DNA of 64,000 nucleotides from IMG/VR virus record IMGVR_UViG_3300047551_003251. One strand, written 5' to 3'. The DNA comes from a virus. A program made the translations under genes and the position numbers. Positions 1,198 to 63,399 of this stretch are shown one piece after another; position 1 is the first letter of the stretch, and the number at the start of each line of letters is the position of its first letter. The notes beneath the pieces were generated by a model that was not told the origin of the DNA, ran no database searches, and saw only the letters and a list, made by a program, of their open reading frames with translations.

Positions 1198-1807
1198 CCA
1201 TCCGCGCACAGTAAACATCAGCTCTTTAATGAGTAAATGCGCTGCATTAGGCATGCAAGATTTTGCAAGCTTAATTCATATCAGCCATTACGTGCTTGAG
1301 ACTGCACCGCTTGATGGCGCGCTTGTTGAATTTGGTTGCTACAAGGGCGACACGGCTAAATTGATTACAGCGCTTACGACTAAGCCACTCTACGTGTATG
1401 ACAGCTTTGCCGGGCTGCCGGATACTGGCGAGACAACCCCAGGTGAAATGGCAGTCAGCATAAATACGCTGGTTGAAAACTTTCAAGCCGACAATCTTAG
1501 ACTGCCAATCATAAGAAAAGGCTGGTTTAACGAGCTGTCGGCGCAGGATCTACCGGAAAAAATTAGCTTTGCGCATTTAGACGGCGATTTGTATAGCAGC
1601 ACAATGGAAGCGTTGCGGTTAGTTTACGGCAAACTAGTACCGGGAGCCGTGTTACTTATTGACGATTACGACAACCGGGAGAACAGAGAGTGGCACGGGC
1701 CGCGCAACGCTGTACACGAATTTTTCGGCAACAAGGCTGAAAAACCTGTGGAGTTACGCGGGATAAACGGTGATTACCTATACAAGGCGCTAATTAAAAA
1801 ACGGTAA
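1187..1807 (+). CDS. TylF/MycF-family O-methyltransferase
   Basis: GALVEFGCYKG, YVYDSFAGLP, KGWF, FAHLDGDLYSS, LIDDY motifs. Confidence 0.85.
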   Translation: MAFDHPRTVNISSLMSKCAALGMQDFASLIHISHYVLETAPLDGALVEFGCYKGDTAKLITALTTKPLYVYDSFAGLPDTGETTPGEMAVSINTLVENFQADNLRLPIIRKGWFNELSAQDLPEKISFAHLDGDLYSSTMEALRLVYGKLVPGAVLLIDDYDNRENREWHGPRNAVHEFFGNKAEKPVELRGINGDYLYKALIKKR

Positions 1808-1900
1808 ATCAAGTTACACGTTTACGTGAATTTGCTACAATTGGGCGCGTAATCGCGATTTGCACGATGCAAATGACCCCAGGCGTCGAAAGGACTCAAC

Positions 1901-3583
1901 ATGCCTTCTCCAGATGGAATTCATCCATATGGCCGCGTTGGCATCAACCACGCGCAGCCGGAAGTGGGTATAGACTACCCACTTGTGGGTGTTCCATCGT
2001 CTGATATCGCGCAGCTGCTTGCGGATCTGTGCTTGGATTACGAAGATCCAGCTGACTACAACTCCGCATTAACCGCTTACGAGTTGCCATTCCGAATTGA
2101 ATGGATTGCAGGATTTGGGACTGACCCTGCTACCGGCTCGCCATCTGCCCCCGTAAACAGCGCTGATATCATAATCGTTGACGCAAATAACGATGTCGTA
2201 TTTGATTCGCGCTCTGCGACTATACTGCTGGACCGCGCATGGGGTCCACGCTTATGGATATACGAGTGGCTGTCTGACACCGCACATCTTACGGTTGTGC
2301 GCCACGCAGCGTGGGCACCTGAAGCCACGCCTGTCACTTACTCTTACGCGTTTAATCCGACACATGCGGTACTGCACGCGCGTACCGTACGGCGGCTACC
2401 CAAACGGCTAAAGACAGCGTCAGCATTACTTACGACTTTAACAAATGCACCGTTTGATTTGGCCGCAGAATACAACATGGAGATTGCGGCGGAAACTATT
2501 ACGCGTGGTTCTAGAAACATAACGCGCGTCACATTTAATGCAAACCCAGGCGCGGGGCTTGGCGTATACCCCGACTGCGAAGAAGAGTTGCAGGTTATTA
2601 CCAAAATTAACAACATACCGCCAACAGAAAGTGGTCATTTCTTTATAAGTGCAGATGGTTGTTATTTTGTAAGGCAGCCAGTGCTTGTAATATCCGAAGA
2701 CCCGCGGCAAACCTATCCCAGCGTACTGCTGTATCCTTACAACGAAATAGACGAGTCTTTATTAACTGGACCAGATCCACTTGCTGGTACAACTACCGCA
2801 GCTGTTGGTTGGCCTACAAGTAAAGAATACGCGCACTTATACCTTGGTAATGACTGCGTACCATGCTGCGACTGCGCGGATTATGTAGACGCGGCGCAGT
2901 TTATCATTCGAGAAGCCGGTGAATTTAAGAAGCTGGCTAAAGAAGCGCACGCCGCTGCGCGCGAGTACGAAGCTGTTAGAACCCGATTTATAAACGATAA
3001 GGATTGTCGCACGCGTTTCCCAATTCGCGTTGCGCTGCAGCCGCAAGCTTGCCCGACCATTGATGTTTTAGTGCAGTTCTGTAATCAAACAGATACGTGT
3101 TTAACAGATTTGGTGTTAAACCTGGAGCTCGACGCTAACGGCGGTATCGGCGAGGAGATGGCCGGCTATACACAAGTAAAAGGTGCGCATTTTGGCAATC
3201 CTGGAAACTTAAAACCACTGGTCGAGCGCGCGCAGCTTAACGGCGCGTGGCCTAACTACTCAATGACGTGGGAGTATGTACCGCCGCATGCGTCTGTATA
3301 TTTCCGCGCAAGATTTTCATTCGATAATTGCGGTGGTATTCAGGTCGATCCGCTGGCACCTGGAAGCGAACTTGAGCCGTACGTAATAACTGCAATTGCA
3401 ACGGCAACTGTTAATGGTCAAACTTTGATGCTGCCGCTACGTGAAAACTCAAACGATGAAGTGCAAGAACAGGCATCTGGTTCTGCAGTAGCGGCATTAC
3501 GTTGCCCTGCGACGCAAGAAGACGTAGCGCCTAAAAACTTCTGTGTAATACCTACCAGCTTACCTGACCCAATCGGCGGTTAA
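1901..3583 (+). CDS. Cys-rich virion tail/baseplate-like protein (paralog 1)
   Basis: 560-aa ORF, SD AAAGGA; GAGLG..C and TKINNIPP..G motifs shared with the next three genes; structural role is inferred. Confidence 0.55.
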   Translation: MPSPDGIHPYGRVGINHAQPEVGIDYPLVGVPSSDIAQLLADLCLDYEDPADYNSALTAYELPFRIEWIAGFGTDPATGSPSAPVNSADIIIVDANNDVVFDSRSATILLDRAWGPRLWIYEWLSDTAHLTVVRHAAWAPEATPVTYSYAFNPTHAVLHARTVRRLPKRLKTASALLTTLTNAPFDLAAEYNMEIAAETITRGSRNITRVTFNANPGAGLGVYPDCEEELQVITKINNIPPTESGHFFISADGCYFVRQPVLVISEDPRQTYPSVLLYPYNEIDESLLTGPDPLAGTTTAAVGWPTSKEYAHLYLGNDCVPCCDCADYVDAAQFIIREAGEFKKLAKEAHAAAREYEAVRTRFINDKDCRTRFPIRVALQPQACPTIDVLVQFCNQTDTCLTDLVLNLELDANGGIGEEMAGYTQVKGAHFGNPGNLKPLVERAQLNGAWPNYSMTWEYVPPHASVYFRARFSFDNCGGIQVDPLAPGSELEPYVITAIATATVNGQTLMLPLRENSNDEVQEQASGSAVAALRCPATQEDVAPKNFCVIPTSLPDPIGG

Positions 3584-3597
3584 AGACAAGGGTTGTT

Positions 3598-5202
3598 ATG
3601 AGCGTTCGTACGCGTAATTGGTATGCTGCCCGCGGAACTCAAGCCTATCCGGTTGATGAGAACGCCACCGGTATAAGCGATGAAGGTACATCGCTGCCAC
3701 ACGATATTGTCGTGGACTGCTCATTAAACTGGGATCCAAGTTATGGGCAGTACGCGTTTATCAGTAGCGTAACTGTTACACCAAAGATCGTATCGATTAT
3801 CATCTCTGCGTGTAATAGCACCACAACGGTTACAGGGTTTACGCCGCTCGCTGTTGTAACGACGCCGCAGCCAGTTACCGCATTTACACATTATGCCGTA
3901 GAGGCGTTACAAGCTGGCGTGGCGGGATTTATCGTATTTGGTGACGTAGCCGATACGTATACTGGGCGGTTCAGCACACCTGCCCAAAGTTTACTGCGCC
4001 CAGCGTGCGCCTACCCCGCACACGGCTTCTCGGTGCCGACAGTTAGAAAGTATGGGCTGGATAATGGTTTGAAAGGACTGGTTCAACTTATCGGAGCTGA
4101 CGATATTGAAGTCGTACCTACGCAAGTCACGATCAATAACGTTGAAACAGATGTTATTGCGTTTAGATTACGTGCGTCAACAACGCTTAGAAATCCGCTT
4201 AGAGAATATATCGGCCCGTGCGGCAACAGACCTGAAAGCGAAAACTGTGTTGATGCCGGTATTGAAACCATTAACGAAATCGTCCCAGATGAGTTTGGAA
4301 ACATAAACATTATTTTCCAAGACATGATCGTAGGGCCGTATGGCGAGTCCTGTTCAAGCGAAGCCGCCGGTGTAACGATTGATCAAGAACTGGGGCTTGC
4401 CGATGTCTGTCCTGATAATGACTACGGTAAATTTTCCGGCAGTGCGCGTTGCAGCTTAAACGACTACAGTTTTTCGTCAGAATCATCCAGTTCTGGTTCC
4501 GGTAGCGAATCATCCGTTGGTGAATGCTCACTTCCGCTATCAATCGACTGGGATTACAGCAGCTCGTCACTAGCTGATACCGGGTTTGTTACAAAACTTG
4601 GCAGTTTTGAAAATCAAGAATACGCCGGTAGCCGCGTGTACGTAGCCACCGACAACACCACGCGTAACTTGGCACTTAAACAAGATTGCTTACTTCCAGA
4701 GTTGTACGGTAAAGAGATTTCAGTTGAATTTAGCTTGCCTAGCGATACGTTTCGTAACGCAATGCTGGTGTTTAATTACCGTACCGTGTTATCCGGCGGG
4801 GCGCACGTTGAGTATTTCGGTCTGGAAGCCGACGCGCGGCTTGGGCTGCTTAGTCTAATGCGATTTAATGGAACATCGCTGGTCACGGATTACGCTGTGC
4901 CGCTGTCTAACGGTATAGCAAAAGACCACTGGTACAAACTTAGAGTTAAGGTCGCACAGCAGTCTGAAACTGTTACATGCCTGTATCTTGAAATTACAGG
5001 TGTTACAAACACTAGCTGGCCGGGCGTAGCGTTTACATTCTTAACTAAAAAGTATTACTACGGCGAACATCGTTTTTATGGCATATCTGCCTTACGCACA
5101 GCCGCGCGCTTTGACAATTTCATACTTAAAGACGTAAGCCAAGCTGGCATTTGTACAGGACTTGGTGGGTTGTTTGGACCTATTGGCGGAGCAACGCCAT
5201 GA
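3598..5202 (+). CDS. Tail/baseplate-like protein (paralog 2) with Ser-rich linker and C-terminal beta-sandwich/lectin-like domain
   Basis: ETINEIVPDEFGNINI tail motif; SSESSSSGSGSESS linker; C-terminal HWYKLRVKV...GISA...ARFDNF resembles a ConA/LamG-type fold. Confidence 0.55.
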   Translation: MSVRTRNWYAARGTQAYPVDENATGISDEGTSLPHDIVVDCSLNWDPSYGQYAFISSVTVTPKIVSIIISACNSTTTVTGFTPLAVVTTPQPVTAFTHYAVEALQAGVAGFIVFGDVADTYTGRFSTPAQSLLRPACAYPAHGFSVPTVRKYGLDNGLKGLVQLIGADDIEVVPTQVTINNVETDVIAFRLRASTTLRNPLREYIGPCGNRPESENCVDAGIETINEIVPDEFGNINIIFQDMIVGPYGESCSSEAAGVTIDQELGLADVCPDNDYGKFSGSARCSLNDYSFSSESSSSGSGSESSVGECSLPLSIDWDYSSSSLADTGFVTKLGSFENQEYAGSRVYVATDNTTRNLALKQDCLLPELYGKEISVEFSLPSDTFRNAMLVFNYRTVLSGGAHVEYFGLEADARLGLLSLMRFNGTSLVTDYAVPLSNGIAKDHWYKLRVKVAQQSETVTCLYLEITGVTNTSWPGVAFTFLTKKYYYGEHRFYGISALRTAARFDNFILKDVSQAGICTGLGGLFGPIGGATP

Positions 5203-5948
5203 GCGAACGCGTTCAAAACTTTGAATTTAGAGATGACTACAGAAGTTCGCACTACCCGTTTTCTGATAGTGCCGGCCGCATCAGTAATGAATACCGGCGC
5301 GTGATTGCGGCGGGTACGTTTATTGATGCACTGCTTTATCCTATCGGTGCTACCTCCAACGTGTACCTGTCGCAAATCGACATTACCGCACAGTTTGCCA
5401 CATTTAGTCTTGCAGACCTGCGGCGCCGTGTGCTGGCTACCGGAGTTGTCGATTTGCTGGACGCGCCTGACATAATCTATTTTTACGACAACTACTCAAG
5501 ACCAGCGGGTACGATTGTAGCGGCACCGCTGTCGCTATCGCAGTTTAGCGCCTGGGAACTTGGAACGCATACGTTCAGCAGCGTGCAAACTGAGTTTGTA
5601 GCTTCTTGCCTTAAAATTCCAGTCAATAACGGCGTACAAGGTTTTACGACAGAAACCGAAGAATTGTTTGCCGGCGATGTGTATCTACTGGGTGAAAACG
5701 GCGTCACGCTCACCGCAGCTGGCGACGTAATTACGGTACACGCAGTCGGCGATCCTCTCTATCGCAGAGTTGAATGCTTACCAACTGCTAAGTTTGTTCC
5801 TCCAAGTTTCTTTTTGACAATCAACGGTTGCCCGCCTGATCAGTATGGCAACTTCAACATTACCGTAGGCGACAACATTACGGCAGACACGATTGTGCGC
5901 GTGGTACAAACCGACAGCGGTTTAGAGATAAGAGCGATAGGTACATAA
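5199..5948 (+). CDS. Tail/baseplate-like protein (paralog 3)
   Basis: Start moved to ATG 5199 (ATGA overlap with the previous stop); HYPF, LTINGCPPDQYGNFNI motifs. Confidence 0.55.
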   Translation: MSERVQNFEFRDDYRSSHYPFSDSAGRISNEYRRVIAAGTFIDALLYPIGATSNVYLSQIDITAQFATFSLADLRRRVLATGVVDLLDAPDIIYFYDNYSRPAGTIVAAPLSLSQFSAWELGTHTFSSVQTEFVASCLKIPVNNGVQGFTTETEELFAGDVYLLGENGVTLTAAGDVITVHAVGDPLYRRVECLPTAKFVPPSFFLTINGCPPDQYGNFNITVGDNITADTIVRVVQTDSGLEIRAIGT

Positions 5949-12589: not shown

Positions 12590-13096
12590 TTAACTCAACT
12601 GCTGAATTTTGTGCGTTTCCAAATAAGCTATGGCCTGCTGCAAGCTGGTGCTGTTGTCTTTGAAATGCCCAAGCCCCTTGTTGCAACTGGCGCATAAAAC
12701 GCCGCGAATGTGGCCGCGCGCATGGCAATGATCTAAGTGTGGCTTGTTTTTAGAATCAAACTTAACCGCACAGATTTCGCAGCAGGGTTGGCTGCAGTAC
12801 TGCTCGTACTCCTCTAAGCTGATCCCAAATTTAGTTTTCGCGTGCCTTCTCCGTCTGTCTCGTGATAGTTTTTCATAATTTTTATGGTAGTACGCTTTCT
12901 GATATTCATTCCATTTCTTGCTGTTTTTCCTTTGCCATTCTTGAGTGCATTGAATCTGGCATTGTTTGCAGAAGCTACTCGCACCATTTTTATGACTAGA
13001 GTTCCGATGAAACTCAGTTTTTAGTAGCGTTCTTTTACACCTAGAACATGTATGTTCGCTTGTTGTCGCTGCCTCGCTAGTTTTGATTTTGGTCAT
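12590..13096 (-). CDS. Free-standing HNH endonuclease, recombination endonuclease VII family
   Basis: CSRC...CKQC N-terminus; CEIC...HLDHCHARGHIRGVLCASCNKGLGHFKD; start moved to ATG 13096 after GGGA. Confidence 0.85.
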   Translation of the reverse strand: MTKIKTSEAATTSEHTCSRCKRTLLKTEFHRNSSHKNGASSFCKQCQIQCTQEWQRKNSKKWNEYQKAYYHKNYEKLSRDRRRRHAKTKFGISLEEYEQYCSQPCCEICAVKFDSKNKPHLDHCHARGHIRGVLCASCNKGLGHFKDNSTSLQQAIAYLETHKIQQLS

Positions 13097-13200
13097 AACA
13101 ATCCCTTGCGTGTAAAACATTTTGCTGCGTATGGCAATCCTAACAAACAAAACAACTATAAAGAAGCTGTCAAACATGGTGCTAATTTATTGAAAAAAAC

Positions 13201-13215
13201 GCGTCATATAAGGTG
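13201..13215 (+). promoter_or_regulatory. Conserved upstream motif GCGTCATATAAGGTG (copy A), putative phage promoter
   Basis: Exact copy at 63330-63344, two-mismatch copy at 13862-13876; all preceded by an A-tract and followed by an SD and gene. Confidence 0.6.
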
Positions 13216-13290
13216 ATCGTACTTAGTTAGTACGTTGGGTAAACCAAGCACCCATTAAACACTTGCTGCTTGGAAAAAGGAGGACGTATG
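13201..13290 (+). repeat. Duplicated structured leader, copy A
   Basis: Homologous to 13862-13956 with compensatory stem changes; ends in AAAGGAGGAC-ATG. Confidence 0.75.
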
Positions 13291-13557: not shown

Positions 13558-13839
13558 ATGTATCAGCTCGAACAGTGGGCACTGCGTACGCTGCCCGGTT
13601 CTTTCATAGCACCAGAAGCCGCAGATTTGGCGCTAACCGGGTATGTCTTGGATCACCCAAAACATGCCCCAGACAAGATGATCTGCACTTCTCCAATCGT
13701 GCAGGTCGAAGGTAAACGTGTCACTACTTCTAGTGGTAGCGTTTACATCTTGGGCGAGCCTGAAGAGGGCTACGCCCAATATTGCCGAGAAATCGGCCTG
13801 CCTATCGACCCTGAGCAGCCAATCAGGGTCAAAAAATAA
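13558..13839 (+). CDS. Conserved-looking phage hypothetical protein
   Basis: TAAATG coupling; GYVLDHP..ICTSPIV...VTTSSGSVYILG. Confidence 0.7.
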   Translation: MYQLEQWALRTLPGSFIAPEAADLALTGYVLDHPKHAPDKMICTSPIVQVEGKRVTTSSGSVYILGEPEEGYAQYCREIGLPIDPEQPIRVKK

Positions 13840-13861
13840 CACCTTAATTGCCACGAAAACC

Positions 13862-13956
13862 GCGGCATATAGGGTGAACCATACTTAGGTAGTATGGGTC
13901 GGGTAAACCTGCGCACCCGTTTAACACTTGCATCGCGCAGAAAAGGAGGACTTATG
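13862..13956 (+). repeat. Duplicated structured leader, copy B (includes promoter-motif copy B, 13862-13876)
   Basis: GCGGCATATAGGGTG...CATACT-taggt-AGTATG...CGGGT-aaacctgcgc-ACCCG...AAAAGGAGGACTT-ATG. Confidence 0.75.
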
Positions 13957-14067
13957 TCCATTGATCTTGCTATTGTTGGATCCATCGCCGCTGCAGCAGC
14001 AGCGGTTATCGGCTTTGCGATGGGATACATCCGGGGGTGCGAAGAGCGTCGCCGGGAAGAAAGCTAA
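13954..14067 (+). CDS. 37-aa single-TM small protein missed by the ORF track (MSIDLAIVGSIAAAAAAVIGFAMGYIRGCEERRREES)
   Basis: Perfect SD AGGAGG, ATG 13954, TAA 14065-14067; hydrophobic helix followed by a charged tail. Confidence 0.75.
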   Translation: MSIDLAIVGSIAAAAAAVIGFAMGYIRGCEERRREES

Positions 14068-14076
14068 ACCAAGTCC

Positions 14077-14500
14077 GGCGGGACGTTAAACACGCATTAT
14101 TCCCTGCCTACACATGGGCCAGTAAATGTGTAGGTAAATCCCACGGTGGTTCACTCTCGTGGTGTCAGTACTAGACAAGCTGACGATATACCTAGTGAAT
14201 GGCGTTGCAGTGATGAACTGCGGTGTCGGTACTCTTTACCCGCTTAGCTCCTGGTCAGAGCGAAGCAAACTACGTTTTGTGTCGAGACCTGACGAGGTCG
14301 GTAAACATACGTCGATCGCCTAATACCAGCTTTTGGTGGTAATTAGGATCGTAAACCATGTACCAAAAGTAAAGGGGTACATACCCGTAGTCAAAGGATG
14401 CAGCGGAGGGGCATGGCTCCGCAACGGTATTATTCCCGGCGCGAGCCGGGCTCCATTGCCCCACCAGGATTGCAAGTGTTCCTGGTGGGGTTTTCTTTTG
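14077..14500 (+). ncRNA. Candidate large structured RNA or cis-regulatory leader, unknown family
   Basis: At least 11 consecutive stem-loops (e.g. CCTACACAT/ATGTGTAGG, CCCGGC-gcga-GCCGGG) ending in an 11-bp terminator with a U-tract. Confidence 0.55.
14459..14500 (+). terminator. Rho-independent terminator
   Basis: CCCCACCAGGA/TCCTGGTGGGG followed by TTTTCTTTTG. Confidence 0.8.
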
Positions 14501-14513
14501 TTATCACACTTGC

Positions 14514-14552
14514 GCCGGGCATGGTATTGCAGGTTCGATTCCTGCACCGGCA
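14514..14552 (+). other. tRNA-like remnant (T-arm plus short acceptor-like stem, no D or anticodon arm)
   Basis: GCAGG-TTCGATT-CCTGC T-arm; GCCGG/CCGGC stem. Confidence 0.45.
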
Positions 14553-14668
14553 CTCCGCTCCAATCTGCAGGAGCAAATACGAATACGTGTGTATTCGTAT
14601 ATTCACTTGACGCCAGCGCTGTTCATGTGCGCTGGGTTGCAGATCGTAAAACTCGAAAGGAGAATAAC

Positions 14669-15277
14669 ATGAATAAGTTCGTAATTTTGAGCGTGTTGAC
14701 GATCATCGCCCTTGTCTTGACTGCGAGCAGCAATGCGCAGTCGTTCAGTCGAGCAGCGCTTGACGGGAACTGGGTGGCCACGTACATCGAACGGGACGGT
14801 AAACCCCAGTTAGATGCATACGCTAACGTTGGACCGGTGCTTAACATCCAGCACGGCGAGCGGGTCGAGATTAAGCGAAGTCCTGAAGGTTACAGGCAGC
14901 TGCGTACCGCAAATGAAACCATCAATCTGGGTATTAACCCAGGATGGTTTTACTGCGAATCGGAGTTGACCATCGGCAACAGTGATGGCTTTTACCGCTT
15001 TGAAGGCGGCAAGCTCTATCTGGTAGTAGTTGGCGAGGCTAATCGATGGGCGCTGCCGCCTACAATGCCAAAGCAAACTCGAATTAACGATAAGTTAACG
15101 CTTATCGTGCTTGAGCGAGCAGTGCCAGTCGAAGTTGCAAAGCCAGCGCCGGCTGCACCTGCAGCCCCTGCGGCTGCTCCTGCGGCTCCTGTTGCTCCTG
15201 CGGCTCCAGCCCCTGCTCCAGTCGCTCCAGAAGCGCCTGTTGCACCTGAAGCTACTGCGCCTCAACAGGCGCAGTAG
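14669..15277 (+). CDS. Secreted TIGR03067-like (Planctomycete-type) domain protein with Pro/Ala-rich tail
   Basis: SD AAAGGAG, ATG 14669; signal peptide MNKFVILSVLTIIALVLTASSNA; LDGNWVATYIERDGK...GFYRFEGGKLYL...LIVLER. Confidence 0.65.
   Translation: MNKFVILSVLTIIALVLTASSNAQSFSRAALDGNWVATYIERDGKPQLDAYANVGPVLNIQHGERVEIKRSPEGYRQLRTANETINLGINPGWFYCESELTIGNSDGFYRFEGGKLYLVVVGEANRWALPPTMPKQTRINDKLTLIVLERAVPVEVAKPAPAAPAAPAAAPAAPVAPAAPAPAPVAPEAPVAPEATAPQQAQ
15143..15262 (+). repeat. Coding low-complexity ~9-nt periodic repeat (APA/APV/APE)
   Basis: gctcctgcg-type units. Confidence 0.8.
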
Positions 15278-19499: not shown

Positions 19500-20616
19500 A
19501 GAAGTATTGCAAAATGTAATGTTGGTTTCGCCGAATTTAGGCGTTTGGCGCGGTAACTACATGCTACCACCTACGCACGTACACATTTCATACGGTGACG
19601 ATCGTTTGGAGCTGGATCAAGACTCTATTACATCGCCGCAGACGCGGTTGATTAATGACAAGTATCCGCTTGATTCAGACGGTAAACCATGGGTTAAACG
19701 TTTTCGCGAGATCAAACAGGCTCAGGTAAAGCTGCTTAACAAATATTCTGTTTGCAGCGGTATTACCGGTGTGCGCATTATTCCAAAAAGCGCAGGCTTG
19801 GAATTTTTTCCTCAACTGATTGGTCCTACTGTAGGTGAATTGCTGGAGCTGCAAGCAGAAGCTGCAACCGCTGGCGATACACGCAAAGTGGAAGAGTTGC
19901 AGCGGCGTCTGGATGCGGCAAAGGCTGGCAGCAGCCAGTTTGCAGCGGAAACGCCTGTGTACAACCCAGATCGAGCTGAACAGAGCGTAGCTTATCAGCT
20001 GCACCTGCTAGCTGAAGAATTCTGCGATCAGATGCAGGATATCTATGCGCAGATCCAGAAGAACGAAAGCGCCGAAGTTTGGAAGGCGATTAAAGATCGT
20101 TTACCTGCGGATCGCAGCGTTATGCGGTCGAAGTTTTATTGCGGGACTATCCCGATTGAGTTTGCTACTGGCGGCTCTACAGAACGCGTAAAAGTTACGC
20201 ATAAAGAATTGCAGCGTTATCACAACGTTGTAACAGCCTCTGTGCGTACCGCTGTAGATGAGGCGATTGAAAATATGATTGCCCAGCCGCGGGCTGAGTT
20301 GGCAAAAGCCATCTCAAATATGACAGATGTGATTAGTCGTGATGGTCGCGTAACTGCTCGTACTTTTGGGCCAGTACAACGCGCCATTGAAAAGCTGCGT
20401 ATGTTTTCGTTTATCGGAGACGATGCGATGCTTAAGCAAATTGAAAACTTGGAGCGCATGATGGATGTGCAAGTACCGCGTGAGCTGACTAATGCTGTTG
20501 CCAATAGCAACGGTTTTATGCAGGCCGCGCAAAGCGTTATGACGGAACTGGAAAGCGCCATGACGTCAGAAGAGACTTTCCGCAAGTTCGGCAGTCGTCG
20601 TGTTGTGAGTTTGTAA
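19477..20616 (+). CDS. DUF3150-like protein
   Basis: SD AGGAG; helical 380-aa protein in the usual position after the AAA cluster. Confidence 0.5.
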   Translation: MSTEQQREEVLQNVMLVSPNLGVWRGNYMLPPTHVHISYGDDRLELDQDSITSPQTRLINDKYPLDSDGKPWVKRFREIKQAQVKLLNKYSVCSGITGVRIIPKSAGLEFFPQLIGPTVGELLELQAEAATAGDTRKVEELQRRLDAAKAGSSQFAAETPVYNPDRAEQSVAYQLHLLAEEFCDQMQDIYAQIQKNESAEVWKAIKDRLPADRSVMRSKFYCGTIPIEFATGGSTERVKVTHKELQRYHNVVTASVRTAVDEAIENMIAQPRAELAKAISNMTDVISRDGRVTARTFGPVQRAIEKLRMFSFIGDDAMLKQIENLERMMDVQVPRELTNAVANSNGFMQAAQSVMTELESAMTSEETFRKFGSRRVVSL

Positions 20617-21347
20617 TGGCTGTATTACGCAAGCATGTAGCTAAGGTTTCAGAACCCTGTAATACCAAACTTGGCAAGTTAATTCATTCCTGGTCAATCC
20701 CCGCGAGTCGGACCGTTTGCGTCGGTTCGACTCCGGCTTGCCGGTCTATTTGCTACGCCAAGCGTGGTTATTTTCGTTTTAACTCTAACAAACAGTTGTA
20801 CTCAAAGAATCTACGCGCTAGTCGCAGTCCCGGCTTTGCGCGTTGGATGCGTGGTTTACTGCGCGAGAACTATGTGCGTATTTTGCGCATACACGTTTCT
20901 GGCGATTTTTACTCGGTTGCATATGTAAAGAAGTGGATTTCTATCGTATCGACTACACCCGACGTGCAGTTTTTTGCGTATACCCGCAGTTGGCGGGACG
21001 CAGAAATGTTACCGCACTTAGTGCAGCTGGGTAAACTTCCCAACATGCAGTTGTGGTGGTCCTTAGATATGGCTACAGGTCCAGCGCCGAAGTATGCGCA
21101 CATTCGCCAAGCTTACATGGCGATGAATGACCTGGACGCTAAAAACGTACCTGTTAGTTGTGATTTGGTATTTCGTGTTAATCCTAAAACAGTGCTTAAG
21201 AAAGCAAACGACGTACTTGTTTGCCCTGAAGAAAACGGCGTAACACCGGGCATTACTTGTTCAAAGTGCAAGTTATGCTGGCAACCAAAAAGGAAGAAAA
21301 ATGAACGCAAACGATCTGTACATAACAAAAGAAGAAGTGTTTGTTGA
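20616..21347 (+). CDS. Gp88-like (radical-SAM-related) phage protein
   Basis: WSIPA..C..STPAC...CYA; RIHVSGDFYS; FFAYTRSW; C-terminal CP...C..C.LC. Confidence 0.7.
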   Translation: MAVLRKHVAKVSEPCNTKLGKLIHSWSIPASRTVCVGSTPACRSICYAKRGYFRFNSNKQLYSKNLRASRSPGFARWMRGLLRENYVRILRIHVSGDFYSVAYVKKWISIVSTTPDVQFFAYTRSWRDAEMLPHLVQLGKLPNMQLWWSLDMATGPAPKYAHIRQAYMAMNDLDAKNVPVSCDLVFRVNPKTVLKKANDVLVCPEENGVTPGITCSKCKLCWQPKRKKNERKRSVHNKRRSVC

Positions 21348-22498: not shown

Positions 22499-22513
22499 CC
22501 AACAAGGATGACC

Positions 22514-22738
22514 ATGTTAGTACTTACGCGCAAAGCAAAGCAAAGTTTAAAGGTAGGAAACGATGTCACTATTCATTTAGTAAGTATCAGCGGTAACACC
22601 GTTAAGATAGGTATAGACGCTCCGCCTGATATACTTGTTTTACGGGGAGAGTTGGCGCCGCAGCAGGTAAATAAAAATCGCCCGCAGGAAACTACGGGCG
22701 ATGTTGCTGACTTTCCAGTTATTGAATACTTAATCTAG
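22514..22738 (+). CDS. csrA: Carbon storage regulator CsrA/RsmA homolog
   Basis: MLVLTRK..QSL.VG.DV.I.....SG..VKIGIDAP....V.RGEL. Confidence 0.9.
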   Translation: MLVLTRKAKQSLKVGNDVTIHLVSISGNTVKIGIDAPPDILVLRGELAPQQVNKNRPQETTGDVADFPVIEYLI

Positions 22739-23905: not shown

Positions 23906-26570
23906 GGCACTGTCCTTACTGACCGATTTACGTTACTTCCATGTCCTACCGGCATTAGGTGTGTCAATTCCGACCACCACCTTACCTATTATGTTAAAGT
24001 GTCCGCTCTGTCAAAGCAACACTTTATGGGTCACAGATAACGCCGGTTTATGGGGTGAATGGCTCTACTGCATGAGCTGCAGCTCTGCAGGCGATTTACT
24101 TGAGTGGTCTGCTGGCGTGCTTAAACAACCGCTGGAAGAATGTATTGCCAAGTTTATAAAGCTTGGCATCCTACGGAAGGACATTGATGTAACAGCTCAA
24201 TTAGCCGCGTATCAGGCACTTTGGCCGGTTGTACGTAAAACTGCCACATCTCTTATTCAGTTATCGCGCCGCCAACTGGAAAGTCCGCCTAATGGAGATT
24301 ACAAGCCGCTGCTGAACTTTATTAATACGCGCTGGGCTGAACCCGATTACATCCAAAGAATAAGTAAATTTTTTGGTTTATTGTCGATGGAGCAGCTTAA
24401 GCAGCCGCAAATAGCACCCAAGGTGGCAGATACGCTGGTTATTCCTACTTACGATTTACCGGGACGTTACGCAGGTTTACTTCTCTTAACGCTACACGAA
24501 TCCGAGCCGCCGGTATTAAGTTATCGCAGCTTTCCTAAACTGGCTGGGCTGGTTAAATACCACAAATGCGCGGGTGTTACGCTGCTGCCGCAAGCTATAG
24601 AGACCAGAAAGCATGACAAATTACGGCAGCCAGAATTGATCGTTTACTGCGATACCGTAGACGCTACACGTGCTTATTTACGCTGGCTGCGCGGTAGCAG
24701 TGAAGCTTTGCCGATGGTAATTCCTGTACAACAGTCGCTGCAAGCAACAAAAACGGTATGGCAGTATTTACCGCCAACACGCTTGGTCTTTGCGGGAGCG
24801 TTTGAAAATACGATTGGGTACGCATCTCGTTCGTCTGGTGATATTGCTGTAATGGATCGCTGCCCGTTTGGCGGCATGCGCAATATGCTGCATTACGTAC
24901 AGCAGATTAAAGATGAAGCAATACCATGGCAACAAGTAGTAATTAACAAGCTGGTTGAAACTCCTGCGGTGCAGCGCACAGACGTATTCATGAAAATGAA
25001 CATTGCACCTGCCAGCCGAGAAGCGTTTATAAATCAAGCGCCTGTTGAACTGCGACAGCAAATTACAGCGCCGCTATCAGAAACAAACTGGCGAACATTT
25101 CCATTTCAACACCGAACTGTAGTTGAAACAGCAAGCGGCTGGTGGCTTAAAAGCAACAAGCCGATTTCGGCTGGTATTATTCGAATAGATCGTATTGTTT
25201 CATTTGCAAAAGCGCCTATTACAAACTACGGAGTGCGCGTAAGCGGACGCGTGCTCTTTAAAGGCGTAATCTACCCGTTTGAAACTACAATCAAAAAGAT
25301 TAACGCCCGCGGGCTATTCAAATTTATCGCCACGTACTTATTGGAAGAGCACGGGTGTTTTGGGTTTTGGTTTCGTAAAGAGTGGAATGCGCGTTCTTTT
25401 GATTTAGCCCTAGCCGCTTACAAGCCGCAGCTGGTTAAAAGTTTGCCGGAACTTGGCTGGAACACCGCAGAACAAAAGTTTGCCTACAACAACTTTGTGA
25501 TTGAAAGCGACGGTACAGTTAATAACAACTGGATGTACAACAGCAACAACCGAACGGAATTCACTCCGACTTACGACATTCCGCGGCCTACAAACCAATT
25601 CCCCAGTGAACTAATACCGCCGCTGGAGAAGACCGATATCAACTCCCGCGCTAACTGGATGCTGGCGGCTGCTGTGCTGCACAACATAATAGCGCCATAT
25701 GCGGGCAGGCCAATGCAAAGTATCGTGGTGGCAGCCCGGTCTACTGTGCGTAAAAAGTTCAGCACAATGCTGCAGAGTGCTGCTTTTCTTGGCTGCGGCT
25801 CCGCTTGTTTAACTGACTGGGGCTGGAAGATTATGCGCGCGCGGCTGGCAGCGGCGGAAAAGCATAACTTTCCAATTAATACGATGTACTGCACGCACAA
25901 AATGCGGCGGGAACTTAAAACAAATCCGATTGCATCAAAACTGATTATTGCGGCGTCACCTGCAATCTCCAGCACAGACTACCAGATAGTTGTTCCAGAG
26001 CCTGTCGGGTATCACGTAAACAATTGGGCGCAAACCTTGAAGCATATGTTGCCGTACGTATTGCAATTTATGCTGCAGAATAGAATAGCGCCAATCAACT
26101 TTAGTAACGACGTGTCGTCAACTTACGTCATCTTGGAAAAATGGCTACAGAACATAGGCGCAAGCACGCAAGGGTTACACGCAGCCATGGAACTGCGAAA
26201 TGCGATGATAACGCCAGAGTATGCAATGCTTACGTGTATCTACGAACCGCGGATTACCAATCACATTTGCAACTACGCAATGCGAATGGACCAGCTTCGT
26301 GGTTCGTATTTATTTGAGCACATGTCTAAACCATATGTTGATGCCATTCCTAAACTAAACGTATTTACATACGCCGACCATATCTTTATTGCAAAACAGA
26401 ACTTTGAACAGTTCAGGCGCAATTACATCGGGTACATCGCAAAGACCACTATGGATAATGGCAGCAATGTAACTAAAGAAATGGCTAAATACGAAAACGA
26501 CTACTACGTGTTCAACGAAGCAAATTGGATTCGTATAGGTAAAGTTTTTTCAGAGTTGTACGAAGACTAG
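23904..26570 (+). CDS. 888-aa protein with N-terminal Zn finger; possibly a derived primase/helicase-like protein
   Basis: CPLC...CMSC; ...PELGW... segment reminiscent of DUF927; no intact TOPRIM or Walker motifs seen. Confidence 0.55.
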   Translation: MALSLLTDLRYFHVLPALGVSIPTTTLPIMLKCPLCQSNTLWVTDNAGLWGEWLYCMSCSSAGDLLEWSAGVLKQPLEECIAKFIKLGILRKDIDVTAQLAAYQALWPVVRKTATSLIQLSRRQLESPPNGDYKPLLNFINTRWAEPDYIQRISKFFGLLSMEQLKQPQIAPKVADTLVIPTYDLPGRYAGLLLLTLHESEPPVLSYRSFPKLAGLVKYHKCAGVTLLPQAIETRKHDKLRQPELIVYCDTVDATRAYLRWLRGSSEALPMVIPVQQSLQATKTVWQYLPPTRLVFAGAFENTIGYASRSSGDIAVMDRCPFGGMRNMLHYVQQIKDEAIPWQQVVINKLVETPAVQRTDVFMKMNIAPASREAFINQAPVELRQQITAPLSETNWRTFPFQHRTVVETASGWWLKSNKPISAGIIRIDRIVSFAKAPITNYGVRVSGRVLFKGVIYPFETTIKKINARGLFKFIATYLLEEHGCFGFWFRKEWNARSFDLALAAYKPQLVKSLPELGWNTAEQKFAYNNFVIESDGTVNNNWMYNSNNRTEFTPTYDIPRPTNQFPSELIPPLEKTDINSRANWMLAAAVLHNIIAPYAGRPMQSIVVAARSTVRKKFSTMLQSAAFLGCGSACLTDWGWKIMRARLAAAEKHNFPINTMYCTHKMRRELKTNPIASKLIIAASPAISSTDYQIVVPEPVGYHVNNWAQTLKHMLPYVLQFMLQNRIAPINFSNDVSSTYVILEKWLQNIGASTQGLHAAMELRNAMITPEYAMLTCIYEPRITNHICNYAMRMDQLRGSYLFEHMSKPYVDAIPKLNVFTYADHIFIAKQNFEQFRRNYIGYIAKTTMDNGSNVTKEMAKYENDYYVFNEANWIRIGKVFSELYED

Positions 26571-28453
26571 GGTCTATCCATAAACCTAGAATCGGATTCC
26601 CAGCCGTAATCGCGGCTACCTGCGGCTTGCTCTACCGCAGTACTAATCTTGGCAACTTTGGCCGCTTCAGCAAAATTAGGCCAAGCATTCCGCGCATGCC
26701 AAAGCGCTGCGGCACCGATGTTAACAGCTTGTGCAAAATCGTCCGTAAGCATTGGATTGCGTGTGATTACGTAAATATCGCCGGCTGCTCTTGATGTAGT
26801 TTTTTCTTCAATCAACGCTAAGAAGTCTCGCAATAAACCACTGTGACTGCGGTCATCAATATCTTGCTGGTAGAATCGAAGTAGTCCAGCTTTGATTGCC
26901 TGCATGGTGTACAGCAGCGAACGTGTTTTGTCCAACCGATAGTGGTCCCGGTTATGCATTGGCGTTGCAGGTACAAACTTGATTAAATTTGAGGCCGCAG
27001 CACGTACATACTCAATAGCCATAATGCGTGTCAGATCAAAACCAGCTTGCACCATTACAGTTTCGCGCACCACGCCGGCGCCGGTATAATCATGCGCTAC
27101 GAGGTCGCACTTAAACTTTTTAAGCCAATACAAGCATTCTTTGGCTTCTTTCATGTGATCCTGTGATGTGACTAGTCGTTTACCCCAAAGTACTTCAATC
27201 TTGTTGTTGTTTGTAATACCCAGCAGCGCAAGCACAGTAAACGATACACCGTCAGCGCCACCGCCACCCCAGTCGATCGCTAATACCTTTAACGGCAATT
27301 CCTTTAACCGCTTAAACACAGCAGGCGCGGGATCGTCAGGTTTGTTTTTCCACTCTAAATTAGCAGCGGCACGTAACTCCGTTTCAGTTATGAGTTTCTG
27401 TCCAGAGTCGACCGCCTCGCCCATAATTTCGTTGTAAAAGATATGCGGCGGTTCATTTTGCTGCGTGCGTAAAATTTCAGCCCACTTGTCATAACGCGCG
27501 TAATGCAACGGCAATATGATTTGCGGTAGATGATAACCAGCAAAGTCGTAACGCAGTTCTGGGTGTCTGTGCCACCAGTGCCCATACCGCGGATTAATAG
27601 GCAGACGGCACTTGTAACACACAACACCAGGACGCTGCTCGCTAATGTCGTCGCGCAGCGGTCCGACCATGCCATCCAAGTGATATTCAATTGCAGGGAT
27701 ATTATCAAAGCCGCAAGCCGTACAAGGTATTACCCACTCGGCGCGCGAAGAGCGATGCCATAAGCCTTCAATTGGATTATCTAATGTTTTAGGCGTACCC
27801 GTGTAAGAACGTAACTCGTACTTACTGTGGGACATCGCAGCATCAATAATCGGCAGATGGTCAGGATCCATGTCCTGCACCTCGTCATAGCGGTTGTAGT
27901 CTGAAGACACACCGCGCGTTCTGGATGCGTCCAGCAACGCAAACGAAAATAACATTACCGATCCATTGCGAAAGGAACGTTGCAAAACGGACTGCTCGCA
28001 GCGGGTATCCACTAACAATGATCTGATAGGAGAAGTAGCAACAAACGGCCTTACATAGTTGTTTGAAAAACGTCGAATCTGTTCGTACAGCGGCGTAATA
28101 AAGAACGTACGAAAGTAAGGCACAACGTTAGATAGTAAAATACCGTGCGAAGATATGGACGTGGATTTGGATACCTGGCGTCCCGTACGGAATAGTGTTC
28201 TTTTTGACATCGTTGTTTTAAACAACGGCGACATTGGAAAGTGTTCTTTAAGGGTGTAAGACTGTCCGTTCAACGTAAACATCAGCGGGAGCAGTGGTTC
28301 TAGTGTTGGAATCCTCCCGGCGGCTATCCAATCGTTAATGCGTCGAATGCGCTCTACCGCATTTGAATCAGACGCGTGCGGATTTTGAATCGCTTCGCTG
28401 ACTAACGTCGTAATTTGTTCGTTTTGCGGTTTTGTCGAAATGATTGTTGTCAT
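26567..28453 (-). CDS. terL: Terminase large subunit, GpA-like
   Basis: RTGRQVSKST (Walker A), YDEVQD (Walker B), YTGTP, CTAC/CYKC Zn, LAIDWGG nuclease, DDFAQA. Confidence 0.9.
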   Translation of the reverse strand: MTTIISTKPQNEQITTLVSEAIQNPHASDSNAVERIRRINDWIAAGRIPTLEPLLPLMFTLNGQSYTLKEHFPMSPLFKTTMSKRTLFRTGRQVSKSTSISSHGILLSNVVPYFRTFFITPLYEQIRRFSNNYVRPFVATSPIRSLLVDTRCEQSVLQRSFRNGSVMLFSFALLDASRTRGVSSDYNRYDEVQDMDPDHLPIIDAAMSHSKYELRSYTGTPKTLDNPIEGLWHRSSRAEWVIPCTACGFDNIPAIEYHLDGMVGPLRDDISEQRPGVVCYKCRLPINPRYGHWWHRHPELRYDFAGYHLPQIILPLHYARYDKWAEILRTQQNEPPHIFYNEIMGEAVDSGQKLITETELRAAANLEWKNKPDDPAPAVFKRLKELPLKVLAIDWGGGGADGVSFTVLALLGITNNNKIEVLWGKRLVTSQDHMKEAKECLYWLKKFKCDLVAHDYTGAGVVRETVMVQAGFDLTRIMAIEYVRAAASNLIKFVPATPMHNRDHYRLDKTRSLLYTMQAIKAGLLRFYQQDIDDRSHSGLLRDFLALIEEKTTSRAAGDIYVITRNPMLTDDFAQAVNIGAAALWHARNAWPNFAEAAKVAKISTAVEQAAGSRDYGWESDSRFMDRP

Positions 28454-45267: not shown

Positions 45268-46315
45268 TCGCGTACTCTGCCCACAGCTGTATGCGAAACT
45301 TAAAGCGGTATTCAAGGAAGTAAAAATAGCCAATGAAGGTGTTCCAATACAATGGAATCCGCAGTTAGACGCTAACGGTCAGTGGGAGTTTAATATTGTT
45401 GATGGCGGTGAATATTACCGCGTAAATTGTCCGTTTTGTGGTGATCGGCGTTTTCGCTTGTGGATCTGTCACATGTACGGTCAGTACACGGCGGACAACC
45501 GTGTATGTCTTACTTATCTAGCTACTTGTTTCAACGAGGAGCAGTGTCTACACGATCCGGAAAACCGTAAACGTTTGGCAAATTCAATCATTGGATTTCA
45601 AAACGTAAACGCTCGCGTTCCTGTGTTTGAAGTTCAAATGTCAGAAACGGTAGTAAGTCCAAGGCGGTATACGTCGCCGGGAACGTTGTTACCAATTGGT
45701 TCTTTGCCGCCTGTGCATCCTGCCGTGCAGTATTTACTGGAACCGCCTCCGGCAGGACGCGGTTACACGCCGGAGCTATGTGAGCACTACGACATATCGG
45801 TTTGTATTGAACCAAATCCAGACTACAAGTTTTTACGCAATCAAATTGTTTTTCCAATTAAGCAGTTTGGAGAAACGGTTGGTTGGCAGTCAAGAACTGT
45901 AGGACCGCCGGCGCCTGGATTTGCTAAGTACTTTACGATGCCGGGTCTTAAGAAAACCAGCATTCTTTACAACTTAGACAACGCGATAGGGAAACCTTTT
46001 GTAGTTGTGACCGAAGGTGTCACGGATGTGCATAGAGTAGGTGACTACGCGGTTGCAACGTTGGGTTGCTCGCTCCATATGCTTCAACGTCAGATAATTG
46101 AGCACTATTGGGCGGGTAAGCCGGTTGTGTTTTTATGGGATCCAGAAGCTATTGATGAGCACAAGGACGTTATTGATGAGTTTCAGCAGCGCCACGCTGG
46201 ACCTGTAGTAGTAGTTAAACTACCTGCTGGAACAGACCCTGGAAGTTTGAAACCTGAAGTGACATGGGGTTACATCCAACAAACCGCAAGGAGCCAAAAT
46301 GTACACCTCTACTGA
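45260..46315 (+). CDS. DnaG-type DNA primase
   Basis: CPFCGD Zn finger, IVFPI...GWQSR, KY, TOPRIM VTEGVTD...FLWD. Confidence 0.82.
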   Translation: MSSRVLCPQLYAKLKAVFKEVKIANEGVPIQWNPQLDANGQWEFNIVDGGEYYRVNCPFCGDRRFRLWICHMYGQYTADNRVCLTYLATCFNEEQCLHDPENRKRLANSIIGFQNVNARVPVFEVQMSETVVSPRRYTSPGTLLPIGSLPPVHPAVQYLLEPPPAGRGYTPELCEHYDISVCIEPNPDYKFLRNQIVFPIKQFGETVGWQSRTVGPPAPGFAKYFTMPGLKKTSILYNLDNAIGKPFVVVTEGVTDVHRVGDYAVATLGCSLHMLQRQIIEHYWAGKPVVFLWDPEAIDEHKDVIDEFQQRHAGPVVVVKLPAGTDPGSLKPEVTWGYIQQTARSQNVHLY

Positions 46316-49300: not shown

Positions 49301-49601
49301 GCAGTACAAGTTTAAGTTGTTACTGCAAATCCACGACGCGCTGTTGTTCGAAGTTCCGATTACAGAACTACGACCATTTTTGATCGGTGTGGATAACACA
49401 GAAGCAATTCTGAAAAAATGCATGTCTACCGACGTACCAGTGTTACCTAGAAAATTAGATGGATCTCCCATGGATGTAACAGAGCCTTATCGATTCGGTT
49501 TCGATGCTGAAATTTACATTAACTGGGGTGTGGCACCAACAGATGACGAGCTAGTTGCTGTTGGCATAGATGCTGAAATGTTGAAAGAACTGGCTCACTA
49601 G
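46299..49601 (+). CDS. polA: Family A DNA polymerase with N-terminal family-4 UDG-like domain and 3'-5' exonuclease (SPO1-type architecture)
   Basis: IIGKCPN..E...GRNFVG..G..L, LTNVCK, LG..A, HPA; VDCEW; ADFKGAELAMLA, AAKNVVFGVPYG, QIHDALLFE. Confidence 0.92.
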   Translation: MYTSTDLLKVFSTIYTGQASDLLEEHFPFFPLTSYGMPLPGQGFIASAVNLGDTPPKTCRLGTTVSLSDCGPNLHYLYRRALYDSKMTVPVVHKGITRNVQIITGHRADVDPSKFIAGPTDCRIMIIGKCPNEEEFRQGRNFVGSAGVILLNALSEAGVSNSELHTWYLTNVCKWGLLEGSSTLPKAHIKECAVLLEQEIRLVRPDYILCLGSDASKHLLGSEFGVQAMAGRVEQRQFHLSRTSEPGETFTCKIMAVQHPANIVRTPELYDNFAKQISSFVKLTQGGSLGGYEKGIKHVNIYTAEHLQQVIDEIKSDPDPWRRLIAVDCEWHGERPEDPGAYLRTVQFSTRHKEAYTVVLRHAGGADAFVPTADAAREKLRQLLLTDDATNWRPRIGGHMLRADLPWLIHFGVDCRAEYAPAARPELCRNEGGWDTSLMYHAVNESTSYRLTDMVLRLTQAPRYDIMLDDWKEDFCREHKLKAKDLEGYGMCPSWVMYPEPWERNHNYAAYDADVTRRIAMLHFAEIGDNSLDTDVFGESSWEPYWIAHRASLGFLEMELNGIAIDRKRLDDLTGTFSWGYQELLEDFRQKISWQDFNPNSSAHCIAFLFGDTYARKLNKDTQSFQVIKPSEALSLNLTPIKATGKPPMLWEDVVANNKTKLVSPSTDKEVLGILGHKHPLAMQLRDLKFIGQVLKFTLRSPNTDEGGVASTDEDGFFEYDGGLPSYINEDNRIRTHLSQLKETGRASSYRPNLQNQTKRREDDYRRIFGFYKTDAEGRQVHVGDYKNLFKTPLYKYPLRSVFSAAPGTVLVEADFKGAELAMLAWMAGDSVMADHVARNNLPSSHPDFYDIHSRMAVSAFHLDCEPTKKGLEKIGRPGTRVAAKNVVFGVPYGRQAAAIQRQCKEEGVDITLPDAQKLIEMYFKLYPAVETFLKECRSRSQDEQWLAGCFGRRRRFTKTFDRKIIGEQERQAQNFTIQNGVADAMNCAIYNFVTFRQQNPQYKFKLLLQIHDALLFEVPITELRPFLIGVDNTEAILKKCMSTDVPVLPRKLDGSPMDVTEPYRFGFDAEIYINWGVAPTDDELVAVGIDAEMLKELAH

Positions 49602-63314: not shown

Positions 63315-63329
63315 ATTTTGGCAAAAATT

Positions 63330-63344
63330 GCGTCATATAAGGTG
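63330..63344 (+). promoter_or_regulatory. Conserved upstream motif GCGTCATATAAGGTG (copy C)
   Basis: Exact match to 13201-13215. Confidence 0.6.
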
Positions 63345-63399
63345 CGCTATTAGCTATGCGGATATAGCTAGGCGTTAACTTTATTAGGAGGCTTTTGCC

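Follow-up and report, generated by a model that had tools for sequence, protein, structure and literature searches.

Do the hairpins crowded into a single intergenic region of an uncultured phage belong to one large RNA, or to several RNA elements that merely lie side by side? This question is raised by positions 14077–14640 of IMG/VR virus record IMGVR_UViG_3300047551_003251, of which a stretch of 64,000 nucleotides (nt) was analyzed (the window; coordinates refer to it unless a contig is named). The window comes from a large freshwater phage that has not been cultured. An earlier note, made from the letters alone, had proposed that the interval is a novel, single non-coding RNA (ncRNA) of about 560 nt. 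Our analysis favors a different answer: the interval is probably a composite of two adjacent RNA elements with a conserved intrinsic terminator between them. The upstream element is part of a transcription unit that has its start outside 14077–14640 and includes a 37-amino acid (aa) open reading frame (ORF); the downstream element is the leader of gene 14669–15277. Conservation with compensatory changes is confined to the terminator and the downstream part, while the center has no homologue and is replaced in a strain variant.

Much of what had suggested a large ncRNA nevertheless held up. Every stem listed in the earlier note was found in place and folded alone at -5.4 to -22.7 kcal/mol, among them the GCGA-tetraloop hairpin at 14435–14450 and the terminator, with its hairpin at 14459–14490 and a U-tract. 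No known RNA family was matched: Rfam at the gathering score gave no match in the whole 64-kb window, searches at E<=10 on 13700–14900 and 14495–14575 returned chance-level matches plus a match to transfer-messenger RNA (tmRNA) confined to a T-arm, and ARAGORN found neither a transfer RNA (tRNA) nor a tmRNA in the window. Folding was also better than in shuffled controls. The interval plus flanks (602 nt) had z-scores of -5.0 on the plus and -6.5 on the minus strand, and 14501–14668 reached -3.5; the central part, 14068–14458, reached -2.75 on the plus strand (0 of 100 shuffles as good) and -1.69 on the minus strand, and this 390-nt part is only moderately structured. Three smaller claims fared less well. 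GTAAA does recur, with seven occurrences where 1.7 are expected (P 0.0017), but this count is also reached by 19 of the 1264 sliding windows of that size taken elsewhere in the 64 kb. The repeat of ATTATTCCC exists, but a pair of 12-mers with one mismatch in ~600 nt is near chance (~0.4 expected, estimated). Long-range pairing of ACTACG with CGTAGT had a pair probability of 0 in the partition function of the transcript model.

Comparative evidence comes from relatives detected mainly through proteins. The protein of gene 14669–15277 has one relative of 59% identity, on contig L004; a profile search with this protein over 1.84 billion representatives yielded a single useful relative. The AAA ATPase encoded 2 kb downstream has relatives of 64–69% identity on contigs L007–L015, which establishes that the region is syntenic in these contigs. 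L016 and L017 were found by the terminator pattern, and the short contig L018 with the pilin-like protein of L012. At the corresponding place in all long contigs, 800–1000 nt without called genes separate the 332-aa/105-aa gene pair from the genes found upstream of the ATPase.

The terminator divides this space. Its stem has a folding energy of -22.7 kcal/mol and a pair probability of 0.99, and the hairpin is directly followed by TTTTCTTTT; a GC-rich hairpin plus U-tract on the transcribed strand is what is predicted for a Rho-independent terminator. It is kept in six relative loci (L004, L007, L009, L012, L016 and L017), where stem pairs have changed and the GCAAGTG loop is conserved. Directly behind the terminator, these six loci carry a conserved Arg-rich ORF of 31–49 aa (MRTRR(V/I)R...SSPNRPTTTRP...), of which no homologue was found in the window. 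An Arg-rich peptide near terminators and hairpins recalls N-type antiterminators, a resemblance only.

The best-supported element of the interval lies downstream of the terminator, at 14501–14668. It begins with a tRNA-like minihelix, in which an acceptor-like stem (GCGCCGG/CCGGCAC, with one C.A mismatch) is joined to a T-arm at 14530–14546 that the earlier note had missed. This T-arm has all the hallmarks of its tRNA counterpart: a 5-base pair (bp) stem (GCAGG/CCTGC), a G-C closing pair (G53-C61) and a 7-nt UUCRANY loop, the loop being canonical in its TTCGATT and TTCAACT forms alike. It is the only portion that aligns to the tRNA/tmRNA clan. A full cloverleaf is not formed, since 10 nt between acceptor-like stem and T-arm take the place of D-arm and anticodon arm, and no tRNA-family covariance-model match was obtained at E<=10 in 13700–14900 or 14495–14575.

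Between the window and L004/L012/L018, two acceptor-stem pairs and one T-stem pair have changed in a compensatory manner, and L016 adds two further T-stem pairs; the T-stem GCAGG/CCTGC thus covaries with GTAGG/CCTAC and GCGAG/CTCGC in relatives. The three hairpins that follow, hp3 to hp5, behave likewise (Table 1). For hp5, the stem reads CCAGCGC/GCGCTGG in the window, CCACAC/GTGTGG in L004, L012 and L018, and CCGCAC/GTGCGG in L016 and L017, and a hairpin with the same loop and other stem sequences also precedes pilin-like genes in L007, L016 and L017. In total, at least seven pairs of acceptor stem, T-stem, hp3 and hp4 have changed on both sides and remain paired, and hp5 shows additional changes. 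Non-standard pairing is limited to the C.A of the window and, at the outermost acceptor position, which is paired in the window, a T.C in L004 and L012. These counts were made on hand-defined helices because MAFFT misaligned two of the leader helices. The leader is near-identical in L004, L012 and L018, although the proteins encoded downstream are either unrelated or share only 39% identity. The plus strand of 14500–14668 yielded no sigma-70-like promoter, which fits a dependence of the leader on read-through.

Longer versions of the minihelix exist. L004, L012 and L018 carry the same element with an extra long hairpin replacing the anticodon arm, and loose ends of contigs from run X6 hold a fuller tRNA-like gene at the position of the minihelix. 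On the minus strand of L016, a tRNA-like gene of ~107 nt (1997–2106) lies directly behind a phage promoter motif; its parts are an acceptor stem of 7 bp, a hairpin resembling a D-arm, a long arm replacing the anticodon arm and a canonical T-arm, and ARAGORN does not call it.

Upstream of the terminator, the unit starts at a promoter-like motif outside 14077–14640. The motif has the 22-nt consensus AAAAACGCGTCATATAAGGTGA, with TTGAC before it, and holds the inverted repeat TGACGC-N-GCGTCA in its interior; behind it there is always a leader hairpin whose loop is of the TTAG type. Three copies occur in 64 kb (13195–13216, 13856–13877 and 63324–63345), where none is expected; all are intergenic and on the plus strand, and each precedes a structured leader and then a gene. 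The motif recurs upstream of leaders in L004, L007, L009, L012, L016 and L017, and five substitutions seen in strain variants of the copy at 13846–13877 restore the consensus. We infer from this arrangement that 13846–13877 is a promoter with an operator-like inverted repeat. That there are only three copies in 64 kb suggests a special class of transcription units, possibly under the control of a phage repressor or sigma factor.

The 5' leader behind this motif is a paralogue of the leader at 13217–13287 (77% identity, E 1e-13), and the stems of the two differ by compensatory changes; the loop of its second hairpin can pair with 13935–13940. In a scan of 9–20 kb with a sliding frame of 150 nt, z-scores were -6 to -7.3 around promoter and leader (-7.3 for 13800–13949), -4.6 at the terminator and -0.4 to -2.5 in the center; 13650–13950 was the most structured stretch of the scan. 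An interrupted hairpin of ~12 bp, GTAAACG...CGTTTAC (13712–13750), lies inside the coding region of gene 13558–13839 and may be a processing or regulatory site. The 37-aa ORF has a strong Shine-Dalgarno (SD) sequence and the same type of leader as gene 13288. An in-frame 3-nt deletion in the poly-Ala run of strain L021 supports its being coding, a gene for it was called in L022, and it had no family match in Pfam or PHROGs. A predicted 21-bp interrupted hairpin (14033–14104; helix probabilities 0.76–0.87) spans its stop codon.

The ORF is followed by the hairpin-rich tail, 14068–14458. In the partition-function fold of the transcript model, a ~200-nt domain (14203–14405) is closed by helices with probabilities of 0.82–0.97, and hairpins are also predicted at 14105–14136, 14141–14162 and 14163–14185. 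The tail showed no blastn or tblastx similarity to the relatives or to the rest of the window. A degraded gene was considered as its origin and rejected, as tblastx against all loci gave nothing. In run X6, where the form of the window is also present, one contig joins 14095 to 14459 via 203 other letters, which replace 14096–14458; the 3' arm of the hairpin spanning the stop codon (14073–14095) is the only piece kept upstream of the replaced cassette.

In four relatives (L004, L007, L009 and L016), a different non-coding RNA lies between the same promoter and first hairpin and the same terminator. In L004, L007 and L009 the middle modules, shared in mosaic fashion, lie between ~110 nt of almost identical sequence on the 5' side and ~90 nt of common sequence on the 3' side. 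L016 has the 3' modules in common with these but carries the tRNA-like element behind the first hairpin instead of the 5' stretch, and L017 has the 3' modules only, behind ordinary genes. In L012 the middle part is absent, only ~100 nt separating promoter from terminator. Within one of the shared modules, L004 and L007 differ by a 1-nt indel, which excludes coding there, and the 3' domain shows two fully compensatory pairs plus several G-U/A-U/G-C exchanges. As a candidate for a new family of structured phage RNAs, the mosaic RNA of the relatives is preferable to the tail of the window. Since the slot holds another RNA or almost nothing in relatives, and 203 other bases in a strain variant, the tail of the window appears to be lineage-specific cargo.

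Table 1. Features of the locus, its counterparts in relatives and two marker genes of the window.
Feature	Position	Strand	Remarks
Promoter-like motif	13846–13877	+	phage-specific, 22-nt consensus; inverted repeat (possible operator) in spacer
5' leader	13878–13954	+	hairpin 1 (13879–13897), second hairpin, SD sequence
37-aa ORF	13955–14067	+	small membrane protein: hydrophobic helix, charged C-terminal tail
Non-coding tail	14068–14458	+	hairpin-rich orphan, ~390 nt; core of the finding
Intrinsic terminator	14459–14500	+	11–12 bp GC-rich stem, 10-nt loop, U-tract
tRNA-like minihelix	14513–14555	+	acceptor-like stem, 10-nt linker containing GG, T-arm
Hairpin hp3	14557–14574	+	2 compensatory pairs vs L004/L012/L018; loop start AATCT conserved
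Hairpin hp4	14577–14600	+	10 bp, GTGT loop; 2 pairs changed on both sides; G.U intermediate in L018
Hairpin hp5	14614–14636	+	conserved TTCATGT loop; just upstream of SD 14657–14662 and ATG 14669
Mosaic non-coding RNA of relatives, 400–490 nt	L004 1013–1412; L007 4568–5052; L009 5951–6392; L016 ~1725–2160 (minus strand)
Arg-rich ORF of relatives	L004 1434–1532; L009 6406–6504; L012 1431–1526; L007 ~5071–5217; L016 and L017 behind their terminators
Terminase large subunit	26567–28453	-	Pfam/PHROGs scans of window ORFs
DNA polymerase	46299–49601		Pfam/PHROGs scans of window ORFs

Based on these results, we suggest that the locus comprises two units. In the first, the promoter-like motif would drive a transcript with the structured leader, the small membrane-protein ORF and the ~390-nt non-coding tail, ending at the terminator; transcription most likely yields the tail as the stable, structured 3' portion of this small-ORF RNA. 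Recombination would refill the slot between the conserved promoter/leader and the conserved terminator, so that the tail would represent fast-evolving, lineage-specific cargo. In the second unit, transcripts reading through the terminator would carry the minihelix and the three hairpins ahead of gene 14669. Acceptor-stem/T-arm minihelices are reportedly sufficient as substrates of bacterial RNase P, a finding ascribed to McClain, Guerrier-Takada and Altman in 1987. Host tRNA-processing enzymes might thus cut at the minihelix, RNase P on its 5' side and a 3' endonuclease behind the acceptor stem, which would release the downstream messenger RNA (mRNA) with a new 5' end protected by hp3 and hp4; hp5, beside the SD sequence, could modulate translation or stability. 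The tRNA-like leader would, in this way, probably act as a processing and stabilizing signal for the downstream mRNA after read-through.

Several observations weigh against parts of this proposal. The tail is identical in four strain contigs from samples of 2011–2025, two of which carry 42 substitutions relative to the window over 4578 nt (0.9%). At this divergence ~3.6 substitutions would be expected in the tail, and none was seen (P about 0.03, weak evidence of constraint). Together with the better fold on the plus than on the minus strand and the enrichment of GTAAA in the interval, this suggests that the tail may be more than passive cargo. Regarding the leader, covariation stems from essentially two diverged lineages, the window and the L004/L012/L018 type, and extra variants concern only hp5 and the T-arm. 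Moreover, the C.A mismatch and the lack of an encoded CCA and of a D-arm render recognition by RNase P plausible, not assured.

The first group of observations leads to the alternative that survives best, namely that 14068–14458 is a functional, structured ncRNA acting in trans, e.g. as a decoy, sponge or scaffold, and is a member of a fast-evolving, modular phage RNA family occupying the slot. Besides the lack of substitutions among strains 0.9% apart elsewhere, the strand difference and GTAAA, it could draw on the dedicated promoter-like motif and strong terminator, on the GNRA-tetraloop hairpin and on the slot RNA of the relatives, with its covarying 3' domain and 1-nt indels that exclude coding. 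Against it stand the lack of a homologue on which covariation could be tested, the replacement of the segment in a co-occurring strain, the missing middle part in L012 and the unremarkable local z-scores. In addition, the sole substitution seen in the tail, 14361 T>G in a fifth sample (a contig of depth 2), breaks a pair in both competing folds. A function of the tail in its own right is thus a possibility that we regard as real but doubtful.

A more far-reaching version extends this idea to the whole slot, which would encode an undescribed family of modular, rapidly reshuffled, structured phage RNAs that contain or lie next to tRNA-like modules similar to the tRNA-like domain of tmRNA, much as GOLLD and ROOL are associated with tRNAs; the tail would be a lineage-specific member. 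The minihelix would then become, upon release, a stable small RNA acting on the tRNA-handling or tRNA-targeting machinery of the host, for instance as a decoy that engages anticodon nucleases, SmpB or processing enzymes, and would not be a mere cleavage mark. We consider this unlikely.

Less likely still is that the T-arm element is a tRNA or tmRNA gene in decay, or that it forms the core, derived from a tRNA, of a phage attachment site, with the surrounding hairpins as debris. The canonical T-arm and the longer versions with a D-arm-like hairpin, in relatives and in the X6 variant, are in line with such an origin, as is the tmRNA match of the L016 version (16.5 bits, E 2e-4). However, that match is below the gathering score of 47, and the window itself reaches 8.1 bits against beta_tmRNA (gathering score 84) via the T-arm only (beta_tmRNA positions 86–102); neither the window nor L016 attains the gathering threshold of a tmRNA model (RF00023, RF01849–51). 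The acceptor stem retains its two strands, and these covary, as do those of the T-stem, which indicates selection on an RNA fold and not decay or a DNA crossover core. No G3.U70 pair is present, acceptor pair 3 being G-C in the window, A-T in L004 and C-G in L016, nor is there an encoded CCA. ARAGORN found no gene or tag peptide in the window or in the slot regions of five relatives, and no pseudoknots were seen. With regard to an attachment site, the scans of 60 window ORFs against PHROGs or Pfam revealed no integrase.

A comparably low probability attaches to a type I toxin-like mRNA of the hok/fst style, made up of the ORF for the 37-aa membrane peptide and the long structured tail, in which the fold of the RNA would control translation or processing of a toxic small protein. 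A small ORF with a hydrophobic helix and charged tail, a long hairpin over its stop codon and an extended, structured 3' region would suit such a system. On the other hand, no promoter-like site was found on the minus strand of 13840–14700; the minus-strand fold of 14068–14458 is weak; the leader of the ORF is open, standard and common to an ordinary neighboring gene; and the ORF lacks a family match.

The single ncRNA of ~560 nt proposed at the outset we now hold to be very improbable. The interval does lack a long ORF matching a known family and an Rfam match, and it folds well as a whole, but a conserved, very stable terminator with U-tract lies inside it; its halves evolve differently, one orphan and replaceable, the other conserved and covarying; and relatives have the Arg-rich small ORF, some also a second terminator and promoter, between the halves. 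Finally, a sponge titrating phage-encoded CsrA deserves next to no credence: relatives encode CsrA (PF02599), the earlier note placed a csrA gene at 22502–22738 of the window and AGGAT occurs a few times toward the 3' end of the region, but GGA is at background rate (4 in 391 nt vs 4.8 expected from the window-wide rate) and, as read from sequence and folds, missing from the hairpin loops, and a sponge of the CsrB/RsmZ type, with many GGA mostly in loops, was rejected on these grounds.

The locus lies in a variable genomic neighborhood. The phage's own contig is ~85 kb, and the window also encodes an SbcC-like protein and many proteins without family. Near-identical DNA is present in freshwater metagenomes from several studies. 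No relative at the DNA level was found in IMG/VR or, by blastn/megablast, in 50,697 deposited phage records, and tblastn with the downstream protein gave no match; the best matches of the AAA ATPase in deposited phages are only 27% identical. Protein and pattern scans of IMG/VR yielded chance matches only, L005 and L006 by the promoter pattern and L001–L003 as low-complexity protein matches, and nothing related. A three-motif pattern of T-loop, hp4 loop and hp5 loop was absent from the JGI metagenomes and GTDB genomes scanned.

An endonuclease VII/HNH-type gene adjoins the slot in the window (12590–13177, minus strand) and in L007 (3953–4459) and is absent in L009 and L019; some strains and relatives have it, and in others it is absent or has given way to different small genes, a distribution that would be expected of a mobile homing-type endonuclease. 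The slot neighborhood as a whole is a recombination hot spot. ARAGORN reported an 88-nt tRNA-Thr(CGT) at 11836–11923 of L009, within a GP88-like gene, which is probably a false positive inside coding sequence; the homologous gene of the window (20616–21347) contains the same T-arm-like sequence, GGTTCGACTCC, at ~20700–20745.

tRNA-like processing signals are found in mRNAs of other systems, including the t-elements of plant mitochondria, the mascRNA of MALAT1 and bacterial tRNA-mRNA co-transcripts cut by RNase P. Like t-elements and mascRNA, the phage leader places an acceptor-stem/T-arm mimic lacking an anticodon between an upstream RNA and a downstream mRNA, and it is conserved before different genes, as a portable punctuation element would be. 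Unlike them, it is phage-borne, spans 43 nt as a minihelix in the window and more in relatives, and directly follows an intrinsic terminator, with three conserved hairpins behind; its cleavage is a proposal from sequence. With the tRNA-like domain of tmRNA (Rfam clan CL00001: RF00023, RF01850) it shares a T-arm of the GGUUCGAUUCC type, the acceptor stem and a reduced or absent D-arm. It differs from tmRNA in scoring far below gathering and in having no G3.U70, CCA, pseudoknots or tag reading frame.

GOLLD and ROOL are large non-coding phage RNAs often located beside tRNAs. GOLLD has a conserved 3' region, a variable 5' region and sometimes embedded tRNAs (PMC12286853). Similarly, the slot RNA of the relatives is conserved at its ends and variable in between, and its L016 version has a tRNA-like module embedded in it. 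However, GOLLD and ROOL models gave no match at the gathering score in the 64-kb window, nor at E<=10 in 13700–14900 and in L016 1300–2300, and the tail of the window has no conserved core and is predicted to form a string of simple hairpins, with no sign of an ornate tertiary architecture. The slot also resembles phage morons, autonomous promoter-gene-terminator inserts, in having its own promoter-like motif and terminator, in a content that varies between close relatives and in sitting among variable genes (pilin-like, GT17, secreted protein, homing-type endonuclease VII). Unlike a moron, its cargo is mostly non-coding (~390 nt behind a 37-aa ORF) and in relatives comprises conserved non-coding RNA.

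The locus shows that the often-ignored non-coding stretches of large phages can be organized, here with a promoter-like motif and a terminator, both conserved, and between the two a cargo position that takes up varying hairpin RNAs, and that a portable tRNA-like leader can be kept, with compensatory changes, before unrelated genes. Should tRNA-processing enzymes cut the minihelix, it would constitute a phage example of tRNA-like mRNA punctuation and a simple model of how phage mRNA ends are set after terminator read-through. If the cargo RNAs are functional, they would represent a new, fast-evolving class of phage RNA with a possible role in phage-host conflict.

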